Source of the DNA: Clostridia bacterium
Lineage (GTDB): Bacteria; Bacillota; Clostridia; RGIG6154
Direction: 5' to 3'
DNA length: 64,000 nt
NCBI GenBank assembly: GCA_045589295.1
Contig: JAZNOU010000013.1
Location: 1 to 64,000, forward strand
The notes beneath the pieces are model-generated. The model saw only the letters and a program-made list of their open reading frames with translations. It did no database searches and was not told where the DNA came from. Below, one piece after another: positions 2,398-24,356 of this stretch; within the stretch, counting starts at the first letter, position 1, and the number at the start of each line of letters is the position of its first letter. The position numbers and the translations under genes were made by a program.

Positions 2398-2460
2398 CAA
2401 AAAATACTTTACATAAAACAAAAGATGTGACCTTAGCCACACCTTATCATTTTATAAAAA

Positions 2461-4923
2461 TCATTCACCCAGCCCGTACTTAGTTTTTACTCTTTCTATT
2501 TTGCTAATCATCGGTAATGCAAAAAACCAGAGAAAAACTGATGTCCCAAGTGCCAAAATTATGTCAAAAGATATTCCTGCAGCATAAGAGGCGGATAACA
2601 TTTCCCATGTTATTTTATTTTGCCACATAATAATAGATGCAGAATTCATAATACCACCATGAATAATGACTGTTGACAAAAAACCAAACACACAAAGCGG
2701 CACCCTACTTTTTTTCAATATTCCTGCTTTAAAAAGCATTCCTGAAATAAATCCAACAACACCAAGAGCAACCATTTGCCAAGGTGTCCACGGGCCGTGT
2801 CCAAAGAAAAAATTTGAAATAAATGTACTTACTGCACCGACTAAAAATCCCGCTTCCCCGCCAAGGCATACCCCTGCCACAATCACAATAGCAACAACGG
2901 GCTTAAACTGCGGCAACATAAAAAATGCTGCTCTGCTCACTACTGCAAGTGCACATAAGACACTTATAACTATAACTTCTCTTCCCTTAGGTTTTCTACG
3001 CTCAAACATCATACAAAACGGTATAAGTGTTTCAAGTATTATTAAAATGCTTGTTAAATAATATTTTCTGTCTCCTAAAAATTCTGTGCCTATATAAATT
3101 GTGAAAGGAATCAAAAACAAGAACAAAATTATTGACATTATATTTGTTTTTGAAAATTTGGGGGTTATTTTTTCAAATTGGGTGTTTATTTCTTGTTTTG
3201 GGTTTTGTTGAACTATTTCGTTCAATTCAGTATTTTTATGTTTCTGCTTTGTTTTACTTTCAACTGTTCCTCCGCAAGCAAGTATTATGTCTTCTGGCAA
3301 AACTGCATCAGAAAGACAAGTTCTTGCCATACGGTTCGCTGCTGTTGTATAAAAACTGTTACCCTTAAAAAATTCTCTGGGGGTACCCATTGAGGTAATA
3401 CTGCCATCAAAGAAAAGAGCGCACCTATCAGCAAATTGAGCACAAAATTCTATATCATGGGAAACCAAAAGGATTGTTACACCATTAGATTTTAAATCCA
3501 TAATAATATTTCCAAATTTCTCTTTAAAGTGTACGTCCATTCCTTTTGTTGGCTCATCAAGAAGCAGTATCCCAGGTTCCATAAGAAGTATTTTAGCAAG
3601 TGCAGCTCTTTGCTGTTCCCCTCCTGACAAATCATAAGGGTGGCTGTCTAAGAGGTTTTCAATTCTGCAAAGCAGAGCGACGTCTTTGATTTTTTGTTCT
3701 TTTTCTTGATTTGAAAGCTTTGTCTCGGACAAAATTTCCATTAGATCAAGATAAACTGTCTTTTTAATAAACACACTCTGTGGATTTTGCGGCAAAACAC
3801 CCAAAATTCCCTTATACAGATTTTTAATTTCAGAATGGCTTTGACCGCTTATAAACACATCGCCTCTATATGGTGTGTTTATGCCAGAAATTAGTGAAAG
3901 GGCAGTGGACTTTCCTGTACCGTTACCACCAACCAAACAGAAAATCTCACTTTTTTTAATGCTTAAATTAAGTCCTTTTATGACATCTGGTAAATCTTTT
4001 TGATATCTAAACCACGCATCTTTGATCTCAATTATTATATTATTGTTGTACAGTGGATTATCATTTGGAATTGCATCTTGATTTAATAAATTATTTCTTT
4101 TATATTCTTCAAGCCAACATCTTCCATCCCTTACAGTTAAAGGACAAGGCAGAGAATTCTTAACACTACCATGGACTCTCATTGGAGTTGGCATTGCCTT
4201 ATACATATCGTGGTTTATCTCTTTGAGAATTCTGCCAACAGCTCTAGGTGTATCATTTGCTATAATTTCCCCGTCATCCATAACTATTACCCTGTCAGCT
4301 ATAGGAAGCACTTCTTCTAAGCGATGTTCGGCGAGAATTACAGTTATTCCTAATTCGTTATTAATTTTTTTTATACTATTTATAAATTCATTGGCAGAAA
4401 TCGGATCTAGCTGGCTTGTAGGCTCGTCCAAAATTAAAACAGAGGGTTGCATTACCATAACTGACGCAAGATTTAATAGTTGCTTTTGTCCTCCTGAAAG
4501 CTCCGCTACTTTTTTGTAGAACCAATTTTGTATGCCAAAAAACGATGCCATTTCAGACACCCTTGTTCTTATTTCAGCTGTTTTATACCTTAAGTTTTCC
4601 AGTCCAAATGCAAGTTCGTGCCACACCTTGTCGGTTACAATCTGGTTGTCCGGATTTTGCGTTACAAATCCAATGCCTGAGGCTTGTTCTCTGCTTCCGC
4701 AATCCGCAACAAGTCTTCCGTTAAAATAGACATTCCCGCTTATTTCTCCGTACGGTGACAAAGACGGTTTCACAAGCCTTAAAAGCGTAGTTTTTCCACA
4801 TCCTGATTTTCCGCACACCAAAACAAACTCGCCTTGATTTACAGTGAAATTTATATTTTTGAGCACAGCTTCACTTCTGCCAGGGTATGTAAAACTTATA
4901 TTTTCAAACCTTATGCTTTCCAT
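2461..4923 (-). CDS. ECF transporter fusion: two ABC ATPase domains plus C-terminal S component (CbrT-like)
   Basis: Walker A GKSGCGKT and GGNGTGKS, two LSGG and LDEPT sets; polar linker; then a hydrophobic S domain with FKPVVAI and GPWTPWQM. Confidence 0.85.
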   Translation of the reverse strand: MESIRFENISFTYPGRSEAVLKNINFTVNQGEFVLVCGKSGCGKTTLLRLVKPSLSPYGEISGNVYFNGRLVADCGSREQASGIGFVTQNPDNQIVTDKVWHELAFGLENLRYKTAEIRTRVSEMASFFGIQNWFYKKVAELSGGQKQLLNLASVMVMQPSVLILDEPTSQLDPISANEFINSIKKINNELGITVILAEHRLEEVLPIADRVIVMDDGEIIANDTPRAVGRILKEINHDMYKAMPTPMRVHGSVKNSLPCPLTVRDGRCWLEEYKRNNLLNQDAIPNDNPLYNNNIIIEIKDAWFRYQKDLPDVIKGLNLSIKKSEIFCLVGGNGTGKSTALSLISGINTPYRGDVFISGQSHSEIKNLYKGILGVLPQNPQSVFIKKTVYLDLMEILSETKLSNQEKEQKIKDVALLCRIENLLDSHPYDLSGGEQQRAALAKILLMEPGILLLDEPTKGMDVHFKEKFGNIIMDLKSNGVTILLVSHDIEFCAQFADRCALFFDGSITSMGTPREFFKGNSFYTTAANRMARTCLSDAVLPEDIILACGGTVESKTKQKHKNTELNEIVQQNPKQEINTQFEKITPKFSKTNIMSIILFLFLIPFTIYIGTEFLGDRKYYLTSILIILETLIPFCMMFERRKPKGREVIVISVLCALAVVSRAAFFMLPQFKPVVAIVIVAGVCLGGEAGFLVGAVSTFISNFFFGHGPWTPWQMVALGVVGFISGMLFKAGILKKSRVPLCVFGFLSTVIIHGGIMNSASIIMWQNKITWEMLSASYAAGISFDIILALGTSVFLWFFALPMISKIERVKTKYGLGE

Positions 4924-5789
4924 CTTCTCACCTCCAAAATTTCAATTATTACTGGACACATACAAAGCAGAAAATATGCCAAAAATACACTTATGTCAAA
5001 CACAGAATAGCCTGTGAATTTTATTGCCGGAAAATAACTAAATCGTGTTACTCCCATTATACTTCCGAAAAATGTATATATCCCCAATCCCAAAATACAA
5101 ACAAGCACTTTTTTGTCTCTCATATCTAATTTAAATATAGAAAATGACGTTCTTTTAGGCAAGCCATAACCACGGGATTTCATACTATCCGCCATTTCTA
5201 CAGAATTTTCAAGCGACCATGTTGTAAGAATTGATAAAATATTAAGTCCGTTCTTTACCCGTCTAATAATTCCACCGCTTCTTAAATCTCTGCCCATGCA
5301 CTTTTGTGAGTTTGTAATTATTTTAAGCTGTGCTAAAAAATTAGGCACAAACTTTAGCGTCATTGATATGATAAGTGACAAGGTAGGAATTATTCTACCA
5401 AACAAATATATAAATTTATCGCTTGTCATAACCTCGCTGTAACATGAAAAATGGCACACAACTGCAACTATCATCAACGCCGTGCTAACACCATAAATCA
5501 TTGATTCTAATGTAAGCGGATTTCCACTTGGCAGATAACCAACAACTGTAATCCCCTCATGGTTAAAGGCCGGATTTATCAATGCCATTATTATAAACAT
5601 CACAAGCATATATATTAAATTAATTCTAACTGTTTTTCTTCCCTTTAAAACCACTAAATATATAAACCCTGAAACCAGCGAAATACCAAGGCACACAGGA
5701 TGCATAAAAAAGCAAGAAAACCCTATAACAAATAAAAAATATGTAAAATTTACAACAGGGTGAAACGTTTTAAATTCATTCAATAGCAT
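4911..5789 (-). CDS. ECF transporter transmembrane T component (EcfT)
   Basis: HP at the N-terminus, TM helices, coupling-helix motifs QKCMG and ADSMKSRGY; overlaps the ATPase start. Confidence 0.85.
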   Translation of the reverse strand: MLLNEFKTFHPVVNFTYFLFVIGFSCFFMHPVCLGISLVSGFIYLVVLKGRKTVRINLIYMLVMFIIMALINPAFNHEGITVVGYLPSGNPLTLESMIYGVSTALMIVAVVCHFSCYSEVMTSDKFIYLFGRIIPTLSLIISMTLKFVPNFLAQLKIITNSQKCMGRDLRSGGIIRRVKNGLNILSILTTWSLENSVEMADSMKSRGYGLPKRTSFSIFKLDMRDKKVLVCILGLGIYTFFGSIMGVTRFSYFPAIKFTGYSVFDISVFLAYFLLCMCPVIIEILEVRRWKA

Positions 5790-6426
5790 AGTTTACTCCC
5801 AAATCTTTTCCCATTTCGCATGTATACAATATTTCTATATTATCACCGTTACTTACATAATATAAAGAACAACCCACATTGGGGATTTGACCATTTACTC
5901 TGTAGAGCCAACCCGACAATTCCCCGCAATCAAACTCATAGATATTTGCAATTCCCTTTATATAAGCAGTTTCGTAAACAGGTGTAAATTCAAATTCAAA
6001 GTGAATTTTATTTTGTTTCATTTCTCTTAAAAGTACATTAAAAACACTTTCACCTTCATAGAAAGGCACATCTTTTGAGTAATAAATTATTCCGTTTTCA
6101 GGAATTATTCCTGTTTTTTGTTCATCAAAACAATCTATATTTTTTAAAATTGTATCACATTTTACACTAATTGTGCAAGTTAAATTTTTGGTGTCATCAG
6201 GAGTCGAAATATCTCTTATCTCCACTTTGCTTTCAACTGCATTTTTCTCCTCGCGTTCTTCTTTAATCTCTATGTTATATGTAGTGTCTGATTTTTCTTT
6301 ATCATTATAGCTAATTGTTGTATCGTTTTTTTTGCTATCTTCGTGTGGAACAAAGATAGCGTTCCACACAAAGATAAGTGCAATTATAAAAATAACAGAA
6401 GTTAACGCAATAACTCTTTTTTTCAT
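5776..6426 (-). CDS. Membrane-anchored DUF4430 (transcobalamin C-terminal-like) protein
   Basis: N-terminal TM helix, charged linker, then GESVFNVL...YIKGIANIYEFDCGELSGWLYRVNG...YTC. Confidence 0.8.
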   Translation of the reverse strand: MKKRVIALTSVIFIIALIFVWNAIFVPHEDSKKNDTTISYNDKEKSDTTYNIEIKEEREEKNAVESKVEIRDISTPDDTKNLTCTISVKCDTILKNIDCFDEQKTGIIPENGIIYYSKDVPFYEGESVFNVLLREMKQNKIHFEFEFTPVYETAYIKGIANIYEFDCGELSGWLYRVNGQIPNVGCSLYYVSNGDNIEILYTCEMGKDLGVNYAIE

Positions 6427-8654
6427 TCAATCACCTGTAATAGCTTTGCTTTGAGCATCATATTGTATAGTAGCTGTGCTATTTCACCACGACAAACATT
6501 TTTAATTGGTTGTATTGTCATTTCATCCGATAACAGTTGGGTTTTATAACAAAATGCAAGTGCATCATTTGCCCATAACGATGCCGATGTATAATCACTA
6601 AATCCAGCTAAATAATTTCGATAATTTTTAATTGTTGTATCAATTCCACAAAGACTTGCTGCACGCATAATCATAACCGCTGCTTCTTCCTTTGTGATAA
6701 ATCCTTCAGGATTAAATTCGTTTTCAGAAATTCCTTTGATAATTCCGTATGCATAGGCAGTATTTACATACTCATAAAACCAATCATATTCAGAAATATC
6801 AGTAAACTCCCTTCCTTCCTTTGTCGGCAAATACAAACTATTTACAATTATTGTTGCAAACTCTGCTCTTGTCATACACTCGTTTGGTTCAAACTTTTGA
6901 TTATCCTTGCCGTGAATAATATTTCTTTTTGCCAGCTCCTCAATAGCAAACTGATTTCCATGACCATCAATGTCATTAAATGTCTTAGAGTCATCAATAA
7001 TTTCTCTTTCTTTAATGTCAGGATTTTTATTTTCAAGTCCAAACTTTTGCTCATTTTTATTATCCTTTTTATTTGCAGTTCCTGAAGATGGAGTAAACAC
7101 AGGCGCATTTCTTTCCAAATTATAATTATCTGTATAAAACCAAATCACAGATTGATTATCCGAAAGGATTGTTTGATCACTGCCCTTTTCTGAGAAGTTG
7201 CCATCAACAGTAAACATCCATCCCGAATTATTTCCGTGCTCAAATTCCTTTATGTAATTTATGGCTGATACATATCCGTTATTTTCAACAAAACTAATGT
7301 TATTTTTATTTAGCAATGATTTAAGCGCCTCTAATACACTGCTTCCTCTTTTAATTGATATCGTTTCATTTGCCAAGGCCTCGTAAGATGAAGCATTATT
7401 CTTATATGTAAAAGAATTTGAACACGAATTTTTGTTATGAGCCATAACTTTTATTTTTACGTTAATTTTCTTTTCAATACTCGGAGACTGACTGTTTGGA
7501 GATAAACTAACAGAAATAGTTTTAGGTATGTGAAATTCAGCCTCCTCAGGCAAAATCACCACTGTTCCTCTTGTAGTTTGATATACCGAATGTGATACTG
7601 TATAAGTATGTGTTCCTGCAGGCAAGTCGTATTTAAAATCTGCAACTTTATCAAAGCCTTCTACAATTACAGAAGAATCTTTTGGTACTACATCAAACGT
7701 AACAGGCGCATATTTTGACCATGTGGCATGTGCTTCATTATAAGGATATGATGAAAAATCGTAAATCCTGGTTCCTAAGGGAAGCATTGTTGACAACAAT
7801 CCTCTAAAACCTTGTTCGGTTGAAAACGAATTATAATCAGGCACAAATCCGTCCATGCCATCTGATGCCTGCGACATTATTCCGTCAAACATATTTTTCC
7901 CGTTGTTTATAACACTGCCTGAATCAATTCCAAGTGCAGACAATGCTGTCATTGCAAGTCCATGCGATGCTGCATTGCTGATAAGTCCTGTTTCATCCTG
8001 AAAGGCTGTAACAAGCGGAATGGTTTCGTCTATTGCTACTTTGATTTGCTCATTCGAATTATAATAAGGTGCAAGTGCCAAAAGCATTGGTGTTGCGGCG
8101 TCCGTACCCCAGACAGTACTTTGCCAAGCTGCTTTGTTTGTAATAGCCTCTGAAATTAAATATGCCATTTGCTCTGCACTTGCATAGTTATTGCCTTGTT
8201 GCAAAGCCAAAATTACATAAGGAAGTGTATACTCATTTCTTACACTATCTGAACCCTCATCAACCATATCAGTCAGCTTTTTTACTAAGTCAATTTGCTC
8301 AAAATCGGCTGTGTATAAATTTCTTGCATCATAGCCCAAAGCTCTTAAAGCAATAATAGATTTAGCAAAAACTGAAGGAGCAGTTGCAACACTTATATCA
8401 GCAATTATTTTATCAACACATGCCTGACGAACTGTGGGCGTAATAACTCTTTTTTGATACACGCTCTCATAAACAGCTAAATCAGCTACAAACCACGCCA
8501 TATTAGGATCGTTTACAAGTTCCTCACCCGAATATTTTTCCGCAATACTGTGAATAATCCCTTCTTGCTGTGCAGCCGCACTTATCGGTAAATTACATAC
8601 CCCTAAAATCACTATAGCTGCTAAAAAAATTGATAATAGTTTTTTTGTTTTCAT
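6423..8654 (-). CDS. Secreted SLH-anchored protein with helical alpha/alpha-barrel-like region, Ig-like region, DUF4430 and three SLH repeats
   Basis: Signal peptide MKTKKLL..ISA; helical repeats (IALRALGYD, LLALAPYY, ALSALGID, STEQGFRGL); SGWMFTVDG; SLH motifs FNDIDGH..MTRAEF, FTDI..ITKEE, FSD..CRGE. Start moved to the RBS-supported ATG. Confidence 0.8.
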   Translation of the reverse strand: MKTKKLLSIFLAAIVILGVCNLPISAAAQQEGIIHSIAEKYSGEELVNDPNMAWFVADLAVYESVYQKRVITPTVRQACVDKIIADISVATAPSVFAKSIIALRALGYDARNLYTADFEQIDLVKKLTDMVDEGSDSVRNEYTLPYVILALQQGNNYASAEQMAYLISEAITNKAAWQSTVWGTDAATPMLLALAPYYNSNEQIKVAIDETIPLVTAFQDETGLISNAASHGLAMTALSALGIDSGSVINNGKNMFDGIMSQASDGMDGFVPDYNSFSTEQGFRGLLSTMLPLGTRIYDFSSYPYNEAHATWSKYAPVTFDVVPKDSSVIVEGFDKVADFKYDLPAGTHTYTVSHSVYQTTRGTVVILPEEAEFHIPKTISVSLSPNSQSPSIEKKINVKIKVMAHNKNSCSNSFTYKNNASSYEALANETISIKRGSSVLEALKSLLNKNNISFVENNGYVSAINYIKEFEHGNNSGWMFTVDGNFSEKGSDQTILSDNQSVIWFYTDNYNLERNAPVFTPSSGTANKKDNKNEQKFGLENKNPDIKEREIIDDSKTFNDIDGHGNQFAIEELAKRNIIHGKDNQKFEPNECMTRAEFATIIVNSLYLPTKEGREFTDISEYDWFYEYVNTAYAYGIIKGISENEFNPEGFITKEEAAVMIMRAASLCGIDTTIKNYRNYLAGFSDYTSASLWANDALAFCYKTQLLSDEMTIQPIKNVCRGEIAQLLYNMMLKAKLLQVIE

Positions 8655-8681
8655 TTTTATCATCCTTTCCTTTCGCCGCAT

Positions 8682-8727
8682 AAAACAAAAAACTGCGGCA
8701 ATTTTTCTTTTTGAAAAATTACCACAG
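8682..8727 (-). terminator. Leader terminator T2, just upstream of the SLH gene
   Basis: 15-bp stem CUGUGGUAAUUUUUC/GAAAAAUUGCCGCAG followed by UUUUUUGUUUU. Confidence 0.65.
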
Positions 8728-8766
8728 CTGAGTTTTTCTGTGATTAATCACAATTTGGAAAATACC

Positions 8767-8804
8767 AAAAAAGCTACCTTGCAAACAAGTATTTGCAAGA
8801 TAAC
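8767..8804 (-). terminator. Leader terminator T1, riboswitch expression platform
   Basis: GUUAUCUUGCAAA/UUUGCAAGGUAGC followed by U6. Confidence 0.65.
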
Positions 8805-9018
8805 ATCAAAGCAGGTCTTGTGACTTGCACCATATAGACTAAAAATTCCGCATTTTTGTGTTCTGCCTTCTCAGTTTCCCAATGACCAGCTTTCGCTGAC
8901 GAAAACAAAAACATTTGGTGCATACACCGACAGTTATCGCAGGGGATTCTCACCCCATTCCCTCTCCACCAATTATGCCTTGCTTATACAGCTTTTACGG
9001 CATAACCGACACTTTGTG
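8805..9018 (-). promoter_or_regulatory. Cobalamin (B12) riboswitch
   Basis: Minus strand shows AGGGAA-tgg-GGTGAGAATCC, GTCATTGGGAAACTGAGAAGG and the B12 box AAGTCACAAGACCTGC; promoter TTGATT-17-TAAAAT at 9072-9044. Confidence 0.88.
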
Positions 9019-9135
9019 TGAATGTATTAATTTTTACTAGGACATTTTAACACAAAACTACAAAAAAATCAATATCAGTTTGTCAATTATTAAAAAGTAT
9101 GGTATAATATCAACAAAAAAATATGAGGTGTTAAA

Positions 9136-9657
9136 ATGGACTTTGAAACAGTGATTGCTAAGAGGTTTTCTGTGCGAAAATTTAAAAACGAACACTTAAA
9201 AAAAGAGGAAATAGAAAAAATATTACACGCGGGACACATTGCTCCTACAGGTTGTAATTTTCAACCCCAGAGAATTCTTGTAATAAACACAGAGGAAGCT
9301 ATAGAAAAATTAACCAAATGTACCAAATGTCATTTTGGCACTAAAAATGCCTTTCTTGTATGCTATAACAAGGACGAATCCTGGAAAAGACCATATGATG
9401 GTGCACTTTCAGCACCTATTGATGCAAGCATTGTTGCAACACATATGATGCTTGAAGCACAAAATATCGGTGTTGGTTGCTGCTGGGTAATGCATTTTAA
9501 CCCAAGCGCAATAAAAGAAGAATTTAATATTCCCGAAAACATTGAACCTGTTGCACTTCTTGTTATGGGATATCCAAATGAAGATTATGCTCCTCTTGAT
9601 ATGCATTTTAAAACAAGACCTATTGAAGAAACAGTATATTATAATAGTTTCAAATAA
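9136..9657 (+). CDS. Nitroreductase family flavoprotein
   Basis: RFSVRKF, APTGCNFQP, GVGCCWV, LVMGYP. Confidence 0.88.
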   Translation: MDFETVIAKRFSVRKFKNEHLKKEEIEKILHAGHIAPTGCNFQPQRILVINTEEAIEKLTKCTKCHFGTKNAFLVCYNKDESWKRPYDGALSAPIDASIVATHMMLEAQNIGVGCCWVMHFNPSAIKEEFNIPENIEPVALLVMGYPNEDYAPLDMHFKTRPIEETVYYNSFK

Positions 9658-9691: not shown

Positions 9692-10546
9692 TTAACAAAC
9701 CATGTTTTTGTCTTTATATAACTCTATAAATTCTTCACACTCTTCCAGCGGAAGTGCTTTTGCGTAATACCATCCCTGAATAAAATCGCAATCAGTTAAA
9801 GAAACCAAACTATTTTGTTGCTCTGTTTCTACTCCTTCGCAAACAGTTTTTATATCAAGGCTGTGAGCAAGATTAATAATTCCTGTAAACAAGTCTTTGC
9901 CTCTCTTACTGCTTTCAGCTTTAAGAACAATATCACGGTCAATTTTTGCAACATCAATCGGATAATCACAAAGATTTGCTAAAGAAGTATAACCGCTTCC
10001 AAGGTCATCAAGATACACACGGAAACCATATTCTTTGCAAAAAATCACATTCTGCACTGCAATTTCAGCATTTTTAACCATAGCATCTTCTGTTATTTCT
10101 ATGGCAAGTTTGTTTCTATCAAATTTATATTTGTCTGCAATATTCTTTATTTTTTCAACAAAGCCATCCTCAGATAAGGTTATTCTTGTAAAATTACAAG
10201 AAAGTGTAATATTTTTATACTCAGTTGCAGCCCATTTCTCAAGCTGACGGCACACAAGCTCAAACATATAAAAATCATGTGCGCTTATAAGCCCCTCTGT
10301 GCGCATAGTTTCAATGTACGCGCCAGGACATTTAATTCCGTCGGAACTATCCCATCTTGACAACGCTTCTGCAGATATAATATTTTTGGTTTTATTATCA
10401 ACAATAAACTGCAAGTATATTTTAAATTCATTATTTTTAAGTCCGTTTACAATACTTTGCGTATTAGCATCGTGCAAAACTGCCTGCCTACTCTGTTGAA
10501 ATATCTTTTTTAAATTTTTATATTTCCCTACCATTCGCATCCCCAA
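9692..10546 (-). CDS. EAL-domain c-di-GMP phosphodiesterase
   Basis: AEALSRW, IEITE, LDDLGSGY, KIDR, EGVET, QGWYYAK all present. Confidence 0.88.
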   Translation of the reverse strand: MGMRMVGKYKNLKKIFQQSRQAVLHDANTQSIVNGLKNNEFKIYLQFIVDNKTKNIISAEALSRWDSSDGIKCPGAYIETMRTEGLISAHDFYMFELVCRQLEKWAATEYKNITLSCNFTRITLSEDGFVEKIKNIADKYKFDRNKLAIEITEDAMVKNAEIAVQNVIFCKEYGFRVYLDDLGSGYTSLANLCDYPIDVAKIDRDIVLKAESSKRGKDLFTGIINLAHSLDIKTVCEGVETEQQNSLVSLTDCDFIQGWYYAKALPLEECEEFIELYKDKNMVC

Positions 10547-10586
10547 ACTTTTTTAAATATATCCCTTTTCAACCTTTTGTTAAACA

Positions 10587-12905
10587 TTAACGTTTTGCAA
10601 AAACCCAAAGTGTATTATCAATTGTATCGTTATTATCCTCAAGCTTATGTATACTCAGCACTACACTTTCACCATTTGTCTTTTTGTATGTAACTTTAGG
10701 CGTTGTTCTCATCGAAAGTTGTCTTTTTATTGCATCATAATTCAAAAAGCTCTCAACCGCCCTTTTATAATCAGGGTGTACAAATTCTTCAATGTATTTA
10801 GATAAAAGCTTAGAAAAATAATCTTCTTTTTCGTTATAACCAAGATAAGATGGCATAAGGATGCGGTGCGCATTATCTGAATTTAACGAAACCTTGTAAA
10901 TGCCATTGTAATTACTTTTCATTACAGATATCATTGTATCAATTTCTGATATTCCTGTTTTAATTTGAATGTATGACTCATCATCTCCCGCGGCAGTACT
11001 CACTTTTTCTTTATTCTGATAATAACAGGATTTAGCTTCATACATTCTTATCTCTGCTTCTCTTACCAATTCCTCACAATTGATGTTTTTCTTTCTGTAT
11101 GAAAGACCAATCGCTACATGATAATCTTTAAGTTCAATATGGTTAATGAAAGTAGATATCAATGTCTTAATATGTTCCTGCGAAATATCTTTTGTGAATA
11201 CTAAAAACTCATCCCCGCCCATTCTATAAATGTGGTGGCCATAAAATACTTCTTTAAGTGTATTTGCGATATAAATAAGCATTTCATCGCCTGCTGCATG
11301 ACCATACTTGTTATTTCTCATATGCAATTCATTTACATCAATGTATATGCATGAAAAATCCTCAGGCTTTTGCTCATCAAACAACAAGATGTCTTTTTTA
11401 TATGAAACCCTGTTTGCTACACCGGTAAGCGAATCGGTTGTTGCTGCTGTTTCAGTCTGATGAAGATGCTTTTTATTAAAAATTGCGATAGAAAAACATA
11501 CTGCAATATCTTCAAGCAACATCCTTATGGTTTTATTCCTTTTAGGATTTAAAGTACCTAAAATACTAACATGATTATTCTTATCTGAAATTATTGCAAA
11601 AGGTATTTGTTTAATATTATGACTTTTGAGAAAATCATAAAATGCACCATTTGTCTTAAGTAAATGATTATTTGTCTTTATATTAATAAAACCTACAGCC
11701 GTATTACTTACTTTATGACGCTCTGCAGCATAATAAAATAGTTCTGACAATAAAAACTTTTTATCTTCACTGGTAAATATTGTATCTTCTTCACCGCGCT
11801 TAGCAAAATAGTAATCCTCACCATCTGTATCGACAAAAAATGCAGATAGTGATAAATAAAATTCACAAATTTTACCCAATGCTTCCATTATATTACTGTT
11901 ATTCTGATTTATTTCCAAAAGTAACTTTCTTATGTTAGATGCATACGCCGTTGTTATTGATACGCGTTTTTCTTTATTCATAATAAACAACAAATAAACC
12001 GCTATTATTAATGCCATGCCCATAAACGTTGTAAGAAGCATAACCGACACACGATGTGTTTTGTTAAACACCTGAGATTCATATCTGCCAAGCATAATTC
12101 CCCAGTTAAAATCTTCAATTGTTGAATAATGTAAATAAAGTGTTTCGCCGGTATAAATAGATTTATAAGCAGTATACCCATTGTTTGAACGTTTAAATCC
12201 TTCATACGAATATCCATTTATATACTCACGATTTTCTAGAAATGATATATCCTTTAAATCTTCACCAATTGAATTAACAACAAGGCTATCATCAGACTTG
12301 TTATAAACAAAAAGCTGAGCATTAAGTTCCTTGGCAATGTCATTGTATCTGTTATTAATAGTTTCAGGCAATATAACGCCATACAATATCCCTACCACTT
12401 TGCCATCAGCTTTAATAGGTACGGCACTTCTTATAATCTCATAACCATCTCTGGTAAGATCATTAACTCTACCGCTTATGTACTCGCCTTTTTGCACTTC
12501 TTCTTCAAAAGAAATTTTTCCTGTTAAATCAATACTGCCTTTTTTAGTTAGAAATACATTATTAGGATTAAGAACTCCAATATTTGTAAATAACCCTATC
12601 GGCTTAAAGGAATCAAACATAATATCAAAGCTATCTCCATCTAAATAAAGCTTTGAAGCAAAGTTTGCCATTGTTGCAAGATTTTCTCGATCGGATTTAA
12701 TCTGAAGAATCAAATCGTCCTTTATCTGCTTTGTCTGAATATGCAGTGTTTCGTAAGCTTCTTGTTCTGCGTCTGTGTAGAAAGTGCTCACCATATTCAA
12801 AAACACCACCAGCAACAATACTGCCACAACCAATGTATTAACTATATCGCTATGTTTTCCTTTTCTTTTTCCATATTTTATATTCATTTTTATGTCTTCT
12901 TTCAT
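10587..12905 (-). CDS. Membrane sensor diguanylate cyclase (two TM, Cache-like sensor, GGDEF)
   Basis: TDSLTGVANR, IDVNEL..NNKYGHAAGD, YRMGGDEF; two TM helices flank an extracytoplasmic region. Confidence 0.88.
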   Translation of the reverse strand: MKEDIKMNIKYGKRKGKHSDIVNTLVVAVLLLVVFLNMVSTFYTDAEQEAYETLHIQTKQIKDDLILQIKSDRENLATMANFASKLYLDGDSFDIMFDSFKPIGLFTNIGVLNPNNVFLTKKGSIDLTGKISFEEEVQKGEYISGRVNDLTRDGYEIIRSAVPIKADGKVVGILYGVILPETINNRYNDIAKELNAQLFVYNKSDDSLVVNSIGEDLKDISFLENREYINGYSYEGFKRSNNGYTAYKSIYTGETLYLHYSTIEDFNWGIMLGRYESQVFNKTHRVSVMLLTTFMGMALIIAVYLLFIMNKEKRVSITTAYASNIRKLLLEINQNNSNIMEALGKICEFYLSLSAFFVDTDGEDYYFAKRGEEDTIFTSEDKKFLLSELFYYAAERHKVSNTAVGFINIKTNNHLLKTNGAFYDFLKSHNIKQIPFAIISDKNNHVSILGTLNPKRNKTIRMLLEDIAVCFSIAIFNKKHLHQTETAATTDSLTGVANRVSYKKDILLFDEQKPEDFSCIYIDVNELHMRNNKYGHAAGDEMLIYIANTLKEVFYGHHIYRMGGDEFLVFTKDISQEHIKTLISTFINHIELKDYHVAIGLSYRKKNINCEELVREAEIRMYEAKSCYYQNKEKVSTAAGDDESYIQIKTGISEIDTMISVMKSNYNGIYKVSLNSDNAHRILMPSYLGYNEKEDYFSKLLSKYIEEFVHPDYKRAVESFLNYDAIKRQLSMRTTPKVTYKKTNGESVVLSIHKLEDNNDTIDNTLWVFAKR

Positions 12906-23926: not shown

Positions 23927-24197
23927 TGCTATACAACCCGACTTTGAAAAAGAAATATGCGCGTTTATTAAGTTCTTTGCTCAAACAGAGCTACCTTAAC
24001 GTCACATCACAGGTTTTACTTATTGCTGCTCGGTTCCCCGCCTGACAAGGTTCGTAAATTGCGATTGCGTAAGACTCTGCTCTCAACACAAATTACAAAA
24101 CAACAGCCACACATTCCAGTCCCGAGGTCGGGTATTCACCCTTGCTATAGCGGATTGCAAGTTCAGGGCACCGCTGCCTCCCCGGTTAGTATAGCTC
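23927..24197 (-). ncRNA. ffs: Large (Bacillus-type) SRP RNA
   Basis: Alu domain GGGGAGGCAGCGGTGCCCTG..GCAATCCGCTATAGC; helix 8 GAACC..TCAGGCGG-GGAA-CCGAGCAGC; terminal pairing GCTATAC/GTATAGC; upstream of dnaX. Confidence 0.92.
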
Positions 24198-24238
24198 TGG
24201 TTATTTAAGCCAATGTGGCATAAATACTGAATTATCAA

Positions 24239-24270
24239 CTATGACCGCTTTTTTAAAAAAGCGGTCATAG
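24239..24270. repeat. Perfect 32-bp palindrome between tRNA-Leu and SRP RNA
   Basis: ctatgaccgctttttt/aaaaaagcggtcatag. Confidence 0.85.
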
Positions 24271-24273
24271 AAG

Positions 24274-24356
24274 TGGTGCGGGCGAAGGGACTTGAACCCC
24301 CACGGTCTCCCACCAGATCCTAAGTCTGGCGCGTCTGCCAATTCCGCCACGCCCGC
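24274..24356 (-). tRNA. tRNA-Leu(TAG)
   Basis: GCGGGCG..GGAATTGGCAGAC, CCAGA-CT-TAG-GA-TCTGG, variable arm, GGGGG-TTCAAGT-CCCTT, CGCCCGC-A-CCA; promoter TTGACA-17-TATCAT upstream. Confidence 0.96.

Follow-up and report, generated by a model that had tools for sequence, protein, structure and literature searches.

We analysed a 64,000-nucleotide stretch of DNA (the window; positions 1 to 64,000 of contig JAZNOU010000013.1, assembly GCA_045589295.1) from a gut Clostridia bacterium, and describe here an operon that joins a cobalamin (vitamin B12) riboswitch to genes for two surface proteins and for a transporter of the energy-coupling factor (ECF) type. The operon is arranged in the order riboswitch, terminator, gene 1 for a protein anchored by S-layer homology (SLH) repeats, gene 2 for a membrane-tethered protein, gene 3 for EcfT and gene 4 for an EcfA-A′-S fusion (Table 1). 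The four open reading frames (ORFs) all lie on the minus strand, and successive frames overlap by 4, 14 and 13 nt. A preliminary description, made from the DNA letters, had listed four overlapping genes encoding an SLH protein, a DUF4430 protein, EcfT and an A-A′-S fusion, and both the ORF coordinates and the Pfam matches agree with that list. The genes flanking the operon are unrelated to it and encode nitroreductase-family, EAL, GGDEF and glycosyltransferase proteins.

Riboswitch and operon layout

The cobalamin riboswitch that the preliminary description had placed at the head of the operon is matched over the full length of the Rfam model, and position 9018, at which the stretch named in that description ends, falls inside the matched interval. 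It is the sole cobalamin riboswitch in the 1.54-Mb genome. The terminator-like hairpin that follows the aptamer appears in both the minimum-free-energy and the centroid folds and, because its 5′ arm overlaps the aptamer 3′ end, is likely to be the expression platform, acting as an off switch. The stretch from the aptamer to the start codon of gene 1 (8691-8804, minus strand) contains two terminator-like hairpins with T runs in succession, only the first of which overlaps the aptamer. Upstream of the riboswitch, two promoter candidates were obtained in a consensus scan that found 38 sites, compared with 29.1 expected in shuffles.

Table 1. Features of the operon and its control region (positions in the window).
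Feature	Position	Strand	Basis or remark
Second promoter candidate	9086-9113		Upstream of the riboswitch; consensus scan
Promoter-like site, TTGATT / 17 nt / TAAAAT with TG	9044-9072	-	Upstream of the riboswitch; consensus scan, pattern match only
Cobalamin riboswitch aptamer	8793-9031	-	Rfam RF00174 (Cobalamin), 44.0 bits against a gathering score of 31.5; full model 1-189
Terminator-like hairpin, 14 pairs, then a T run	8773-8804	-	5′ arm overlaps the aptamer 3′ end
Second terminator-like hairpin, 17 pairs, with a T run	8691-8729	-	Just ahead of the gene 1 start codon
Gene 1, secreted SLH-anchored transcobalamin-like protein, 743 aa from ATG 8654	6423-8654	-	ORF open from 8681
Gene 1 α/α toroid, model residues 1-264	7785-8576	-	AlphaFold2 model; weak Pfam PF01122
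Gene 1 β-sandwich (Ig-like) insert between toroid and β domain, model residues 280-357	7506-7739	-	Secondary structure of the model
Gene 1 fused (cis) DUF4430 β-grasp domain, model residues 370-482	7131-7469	-	Pfam; genome search match 7131-7346; Foldseek 5no0, 5np4, 3u7z
Gene 1 SLH repeats (cell-wall anchor)	6453-6989	-	Pfam SLH, 2.7e-26
Gene 2, membrane-tethered DUF4430 protein, 216 aa	5776-6426	-	N-terminal hydrophobic anchor, polar linker, β domain 5779-6201
Gene 3, EcfT (CbiQ family) transmembrane coupling subunit	4911-5789	-	Pfam PF02361
Gene 4, EcfA-EcfA′-S fusion, 820 aa	2461-4923	-	Walker A at residues 38 and 332; S domain 2464-3171
Terminator-like hairpin ending the operon	2422-2445	-	After the last gene

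Predicted folds of the two surface proteins

Gene 1 is likely to start at the ATG at position 8654, as the preliminary description had it; the 743-residue database form of the protein begins there, and a purine-rich stretch lies ahead of the codon. The N terminus carries a signal-peptide-like hydrophobic stretch, and there is no further hydrophobic segment in the protein. The SLH repeats (PF00395) score 91.7 bits against a cut-off of 20.8 and match the Sap SLH structures 3pyw and 6bt4 at E ~2e-13, and the DUF4430 domain (PF14478) scores 56.3 bits against 23.8 (E = 4.4e-15). When the protein and its family profile were compared with PDB sequences, the only significant matches were SLH proteins, intrinsic factor reaching E = 0.087 with the profile, and NCBIfam gave no specific family for gene 1, gene 2 or the S domain of gene 4. 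As for a NEAT domain, the NCBIfam NEAT-LRR model matches only the SLH part of gene 1 (residues 563-743; 43.7 bits against 1275), and Pfam gave no NEAT family.

To describe the remainder of gene 1, residues 36-560 were aligned with 44 of the 120 homologues listed, picked for coverage, and modelled with AlphaFold2. The model has a mean predicted local distance difference test score (pLDDT) of 88.6 and a predicted template-modelling (TM) score of 0.63, and it comprises a toroid, a β-sandwich, a β-grasp domain and a disordered linker. What had been called a helical barrel-like region is thus a genuine α/α toroid in this model. The β-sandwich between the toroid and the β-grasp domain is labelled Ig-like from its strand pattern in the whole model rather than from a fold search on the insert itself. 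In a Foldseek comparison with the PDB, the top 15 matches are transcobalamin, haptocorrin and intrinsic factor (E = 7.8e-10 to 5.4e-8), with both domains covered, and the isolated transcobalamin β domain (5no0, 5np4) and the Ruminococcus gnavus DUF4430 structure 3u7z are matched as well. Alignment by VIA-align with the B12 carriers gives Z scores of 18-20 over 339-351 residues, pairing model residues 1-484 with chain residues 6-409. The likeness to transcobalamin proposed in the preliminary description is therefore upheld by the fold comparison of gene 1, and likewise by that of gene 2.

Gene 2 contains a single N-terminal hydrophobic segment and no other. There is no cysteine before residue 84, so the protein is without a lipobox. 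Its DUF4430 match (PF14478) has E = 4e-15 and 56.4 bits against a cut-off of 23.8, and the model of residues 76-216 has a pLDDT of 89.7. In the Foldseek comparison, ranks 1-18 are all transcobalamin, intrinsic factor, haptocorrin or 3u7z (E = 1.5e-6 to 3.2e-5), after which comes a generic β-grasp protein at E = 0.033; against the isolated transcobalamin β domain, the TM score is 0.72-0.74. Prediction of a complex between the S domain of gene 4 and the β domain of gene 2 gave a score of 0.00 in two runs in which the controls did not fold, and so counts neither for nor against such a complex.

Two further observations concern DUF4430 domains of this kind. In the separate β domains (gene 2 residues 76-216 and 21 relatives), cysteines are invariant or nearly so at aligned positions 9, 15, 111 and 128; for an extracellular domain in anaerobes, this hints at disulfide bonds or at contacts with a metal or a ligand. 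In addition, the genome encodes a third, solitary DUF4430 protein elsewhere (G000:C1:67849-68034; L004:1468-1899, minus strand), in a 143-residue ORF with a Pfam match of 1.3e-9. The 3.2 kb covered around it encode a short-chain dehydrogenase, a pyridoxal-phosphate enzyme and part of a UxuA protein, but no transporter.

Importer, B12 need and related loci

Genes 3 and 4 supply the parts of an ECF transporter. The gene 3 product, which has multiple hydrophobic segments, matches PF02361 with E = 1.5e-9 and 38.2 bits against a cut-off of 25. In gene 4, Pfam finds two ABC_tran domains (6.3e-56) and an ECF S-component (PF07155; 1.7e-9, 38.3 bits against 26.7); two Walker A and two LSGG motifs are present, and residues 590-807 contain at least six hydrophobic segments that correspond to the S component. 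The ATPase part scores 357.7 against 315 with TIGR04520, in two matched stretches, and 328.9 against 330, slightly under the cut-off, with TIGR04521. The S domain matches chain A of PDB entry 6FNP at E = 1.1e-9 as a single sequence and at 3.8e-14 as a 22-sequence profile, whereas the next chain reaches 0.0045, which leaves 6FNP chain A as the sole strong solved relative. That entry is the ECF-CbrT complex of Lactobacillus delbrueckii, which, according to the available text of Santos et al. 2018 (PMC5997447), imports cobalamin and cobinamide, with hemin being no competitor. Chain A (182 residues, named 'Membrane protein') is presumably CbrT, judging from its length and name. The strong homology of the S domain to a CbrT-type component predicts cobalamin transport, in agreement with the ECF importer of the preliminary description.

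The genome, which is 97.4% complete, contains uses for such a cargo, namely a MetH-type methionine synthase and a radical-SAM protein that binds B12. No match was found in this genome, which is not closed, to CobS, CbiB, CbiD or a PduO-type adenosyltransferase, nor was a BtuF-type binding protein matched; because the genome is not closed, the absence of these markers of B12 synthesis and uptake is not proven. These results nonetheless give good support to the prediction that the organism is a B12 auxotroph with no other recognisable B12 uptake route. The useful cargo would be whole cobamides, because cobinamide could not be completed without CbiB or CobS.

To place the operon among its relatives, one genome per species was scanned, which yielded 80 loci, all Clostridia-type (Bacillota), nearly all from metagenome-assembled genomes (MAGs) and many from gut or rumen; the domains encoded in the window were then compared by blastp with all stop-to-stop frames of these loci. 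In 64 of the 80, the toroid gene is closely preceded, on its own strand, by a cobalamin riboswitch; Rfam identified it in 8 of 8 loci, an nhmmer profile identified it in 62, and rechecking 6 with Rfam added 2. The B12 control that the preliminary description had read from a single operon is thus conserved. Twelve of the 16 remaining loci are cut off by a contig edge at their start, L046 has less than about 430 nt upstream, and L026, L027 and L030 gave no match despite having upstream DNA.

The same loci bear on how the two surface proteins are paired. Toroid proteins with a fused β domain were found in 33 loci and toroid proteins without one in 47. Every one of the 40 toroid-only proteins with at least 800 nt downstream is followed by a separate β gene, which is also present with 17 of the 26 fused-β proteins that have at least 2600 nt of room. 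EcfT follows the separate β gene in 23 of the 50 loci with at least 1500 nt beyond it, divided as 16 of 17 fused-β loci and 7 of 33 toroid-only loci; the associated Fisher p of 7e-7 overstates the case because kin are not independent. An S domain was detected in 21 loci, 19 of which have it joined to A-A′ in one protein. In a quick IQ-TREE tree of 95 β domains (at least 100 aligned residues, the separate ones with at least 40% identity), the 34 fused and 61 separate domains are split on one branch with an SH-aLRT (approximate likelihood-ratio test) support of 99%, and the separate domains do not sort by whether their loci have ECF genes. The tree thus presents the fused and separate β domains as two old paralogue groups.

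These patterns speak for a split clamp, in which the gene 2 β domain would close in trans on the gene 1 toroid to make one heteromeric binder at the wall-membrane boundary, the fused β domain serving as an extra or alternative lid. Since all 40 toroid-only proteins adjoin a separate β gene, pairing in trans must be the rule for proteins of that kind, and the separate domains of ECF and non-ECF loci form one intermingled group. The available text of Burroughs et al. 2007 (PMC1796856) suggests that paralogous SLBB proteins form surface complexes, and the accessible part of a preprint on Lactobacillus sakei (bioRxiv 10.1101/864751) models separate α and β proteins as a heterodimer. By contrast, gene 1 already carries a β domain of its own, and fused-β loci keep the separate β gene mostly where ECF genes follow, a bias that again comes from kin that are not independent but suggests that the separate β domain works with the transporter. 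We regard the split clamp as unlikely for this operon, with odds of roughly one to three.

Several of the related loci differ from the window in other ways. An extra SLH protein of about 530-600 residues directly follows the toroid protein in 10 of the 80 (L014, L015, L018, L019, L027, L029, L030, L040, L049 and L071); wherever the locus reaches far enough, its gene is flanked by the toroid gene on one side and the separate β gene on the other. Three of the ten show weak similarity (~30%) to the toroid. Giant toroid-plus-β proteins, in open frames of about 2080 residues, occur in L059 and L088 (Peptococcaceae MAGs), with a riboswitch upstream and no separate β gene within the locus. The closest related locus contains two T-box leaders, at L009:1260-1501 (plus strand) and 7111-7363 (minus strand), one of which adjoins the cobalamin riboswitch of that locus on the upstream side and points away from it. 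As for the operon in the window, at least half of its sampled words were found in each of five sequencing runs from four studies, all labelled gut metagenome.

Three observations concern the surroundings of the operon in the window. A nitroreductase-family gene at 9136-9657 (plus strand) is divergent from the promoter region of the riboswitch, and its best NCBIfam match is BluB (5,6-dimethylbenzimidazole synthase). This assignment was rejected: because the TIGR02476 score of 53.2 bits is far under the cut-off of 150, the product is probably a generic nitroreductase-family protein. Adjoining genes for the turnover of cyclic di-GMP, one with an EAL domain (284 residues) and one with a GGDEF domain (772 residues), lie just upstream of the operon region at 9692-12905 (minus strand). 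Farther away, a bacterial large signal recognition particle RNA (173.4 bits) was found at 23929-24356 (minus strand), beside a tRNA.

Proposed function and comparison with known systems

We put at about 80% the probability that this is a B12-repressed operon for the scavenging and import of complete cobamides in a B12-auxotrophic gut Clostridia bacterium. Corrinoid capture combined with ECF import is well supported. The preliminary description had gone further and read the locus as a wall-to-membrane corrinoid relay; of that reading, the transcobalamin likeness, the CbrT-type importer, the B12 control and the B12 need stand, whereas the hand-off from wall to membrane is inferred from anchoring and gene order, and the competition with host B12 carriers that it also raised is conjectural.

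Because of their fold, the riboswitch control and the strict pairing of α and β partners, both surface proteins would be expected to bind corrinoid. When cobamide is plentiful in the cell, the aptamer would bind it and the overlapping terminator would stop transcription; when cobamide is scarce, all four translationally coupled genes would be made. The gene 1 protein would then be exported and held in the wall by its SLH repeats, with corrinoid clamped between the toroid and its own DUF4430 domain as in transcobalamin. Gene 2 would provide a second, anciently diverged β domain on a flexible membrane tether, helping with capture near the transporter, and EcfT together with the EcfA-A′-S protein, through its CbrT-like S domain, would move the corrinoid across the membrane using ATP. 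Once inside, it would serve MetH and the B12 radical-SAM enzyme.

What the tethered β domain contributes may be one of several things: it may receive B12 from gene 1, close on the gene 1 toroid or dock on the S domain. A strict relay, from the wall protein to the tethered β domain and on to the S domain, is suggested by anchoring and gene order, and we propose it tentatively, at odds somewhat short of even. In a more specific version, gene 1 would be a complete trap and the tethered β domain would act as a shuttle, docking on the S domain of CbrT type, so that the paralogues would not be redundant; we consider this possible but doubtful. To our knowledge, classical ECF transporters use no separate binding protein. 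If the shuttle is real, it would represent an ECF transporter with dedicated extracytoplasmic binding proteins, which ECF transporters by definition do not need, and a Gram-positive parallel to the B12 relay of Bacteroides that uses the fold later adopted for the animal B12 carriers.

Several results weigh against capture and import of corrinoids, beginning with the surface proteins themselves. The Cobalamin_bind family PF01122 matches gene 1 at E = 4.8e-4 and 19.6 bits, under the 25-bit cut-off, although the presence of a precomputed PF01122 match in 44 of the 120 gene 1 homologues listed speaks in favour of capture. The gene 1 model departs from transcobalamin by a root mean square deviation (rmsd) of about 25 Å over both domains, with the Ig-like domain in between, and therefore is not in the closed, ligand-bound arrangement. 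For the separate β domain, the profile compared with PDB sequences gave chance-level matches only (the best being cannabidiolic acid synthase, E = 0.0045) and no transcobalamin, so that its link to transcobalamin rests on the Pfam DUF4430 match and the modelled fold. Our literature search, which covered few subscription journals and excluded supplements, found no binding or transport study of such bacterial proteins; the statement in the preliminary description that the system is not biochemically characterised thus holds for the literature searched.

A further point of this kind is that the gene 1 toroid alone aligns with class II terpene cyclases (Z ~20, rmsd 3.0 over ~243 residues) as well as it does with the B12 carriers. 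The toroid might accordingly be an extracellular enzyme, terpene-cyclase-like or glycoside-hydrolase-like, with DUF4430 domains that bind something other than a corrinoid. In VIA-align the toroid reaches Z ~20 with drimenyl diphosphate synthase as well as with squalene-hopene cyclase, and Z 16-17 with enzymes of families GH88, GH105 and GH76, and prenyltransferase/cyclase Pfam matches occur in some of the gene 1 homologues listed. Because the terpene cyclases score equally, the toroid fold alone is not diagnostic, and only the toroid-plus-β combination is specific; this combination is matched jointly only by B12 carriers. Gene 1 also lacks a DxDD motif, and the riboswitch and the CbrT context point away from such an enzyme, which we consider barely credible.

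The third point comes from the related loci, in that no ECF genes follow the surface-protein genes in 27 of the 50 loci with room. The binders can thus occur without a co-encoded transporter, and in these 27 loci the toroid and β genes form a two-gene, riboswitch-controlled unit; ten genes downstream in five of the two-gene loci are unrelated to B12 transport. The surface proteins might thus mainly hoard or store corrinoids, withholding them from competitors or the host or buffering supply, with no obligatory hand-off to the ECF transporter. Surface binders of Bacteroides are reported, in the accessible part of a 2026 review (PMC13616437), to outcompete intrinsic factor, which would be in keeping with such a role. 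In the operon described here, however, four overlapping genes share one riboswitch and one terminator, and repression by B12 suits uptake better than storage. Hoarding as the main function seems improbable to us, at about one chance in ten.

Finally, the substrate might be heme or another tetrapyrrole, as reported for lsa1836-1840 of L. sakei, the only genetically studied cluster of such a layout that we found in the literature. According to the available text of the preprint (bioRxiv 10.1101/864751), deletion of that cluster impaired heme accumulation and complementation restored it, and this too counts against a corrinoid cargo. The word 'riboswitch' is absent from that text, whereas a cobalamin riboswitch controls the operon described here and 64 of 80 related loci; because this control is conserved, heme is disfavoured. 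In addition, hemin does not compete with B12 in ECF-CbrT, as far as the accessible text of PMC5997447 goes, and B12 is required by the organism, whose genome reveals no other recognisable route for taking it up. A heme cargo is therefore very improbable, and import of complete cobamides remains the reading that we prefer.

The operon matters in the first place because competition for cobamides shapes gut communities and, as stated in the accessible text of PMC13616437, the cell-wall-associated cobamide binders of Firmicutes are 'entirely uncharacterized'. The profile of the separate, tethered β protein gave matches in 168 of the 400 genomes sampled from the class, among them 13 of the 15 that belong to the window's own family, so such a mechanism would be widespread. 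The system is also a compact candidate, comprising a single riboswitch, a pair of binders and a single-module importer in an apparent auxotroph with no other recognisable uptake route; being compact and fully specified, it is suited to binding, transfer and transport assays. It bears, moreover, on whether the animal B12 carriers derive from bacterial proteins of this kind, as was proposed in the available text of Burroughs et al. (PMC1796856).

Those animal carriers, transcobalamin, intrinsic factor and haptocorrin (2bb5, 2pmv, 4kki, 8ixu), share with the operon the order of toroid and then β-grasp domain, and they rank first in the structure comparisons of the two surface proteins. They differ in that identity is 11-18%, PF01122 is under its cut-off here, an Ig-like domain lies in between, an SLH anchor is present and a second β domain comes as a tethered protein. 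The R. gnavus protein RUMGNA_00854 (3u7z, 'putative metal binding protein') offers a solved DUF4430-type β-grasp fold, with TM scores of 0.65-0.67 (target-normalised) to both β domains, but it is a structural-genomics entry without an assigned function and its title names no ligand.

Among surface relays, BtuJ, BtuH and BtuG-BtuB of Bacteroides thetaiotaomicron and the Isd heme systems are alike in concept, in that surface binders pass a tetrapyrrole inward, with riboswitch control (PMC13616437, available text). There is no homology: for genes 1 and 2, Pfam gives only SLH, DUF4430 and a weak PF01122, and there is no outer membrane. Transcobalamin is never mentioned in the accessible text of that review in connection with the Bacteroides relay.

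The transporter resembles ECF-CbrT (6FNP) in its homologous S domain and in the presence of EcfT and two ATPase domains. ECF-CbrT belongs to group II, in which S-components share one ECF module (PMC5997447, accessible text), whereas the module is encoded here in the same operon, A, A′ and S form one polypeptide, and two surface binding proteins are co-encoded. The L. sakei cluster, in the available text of its preprint, likewise combines an S component, a fused A-A′ protein, T, and a β-like and an α-like protein. In that cluster, α and β are separate proteins and the assigned function is heme uptake; the likeness noted here is one of layout.

The idea of B12 capture by such proteins is not new. 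The available text of Burroughs, Balaji, Iyer and Aravind (2007; PMC1796856) predicted that toroid-plus-SLBB surface proteins in CbiO/CbiQ operons scavenge B12, and the systems described there have the same components: a secreted or surface toroid-plus-SLBB protein, a second, paralogous SLBB protein, and CbiO-like ATPase and CbiQ-like membrane genes, in bacteria without B12 synthesis. That work was a prediction without experiments, and the terms 'riboswitch', 'S-layer' and 'ABC transporter' each have no occurrence in its available text. Judged from its sequence, the operon described here is a typical, complete and clean example of this widespread, predicted capture-and-import system, to which it adds the anchor of SLH repeats, the Ig-like insert, the fusion of a CbrT-type S domain with A-A′ and the division of the β paralogues into two groups.

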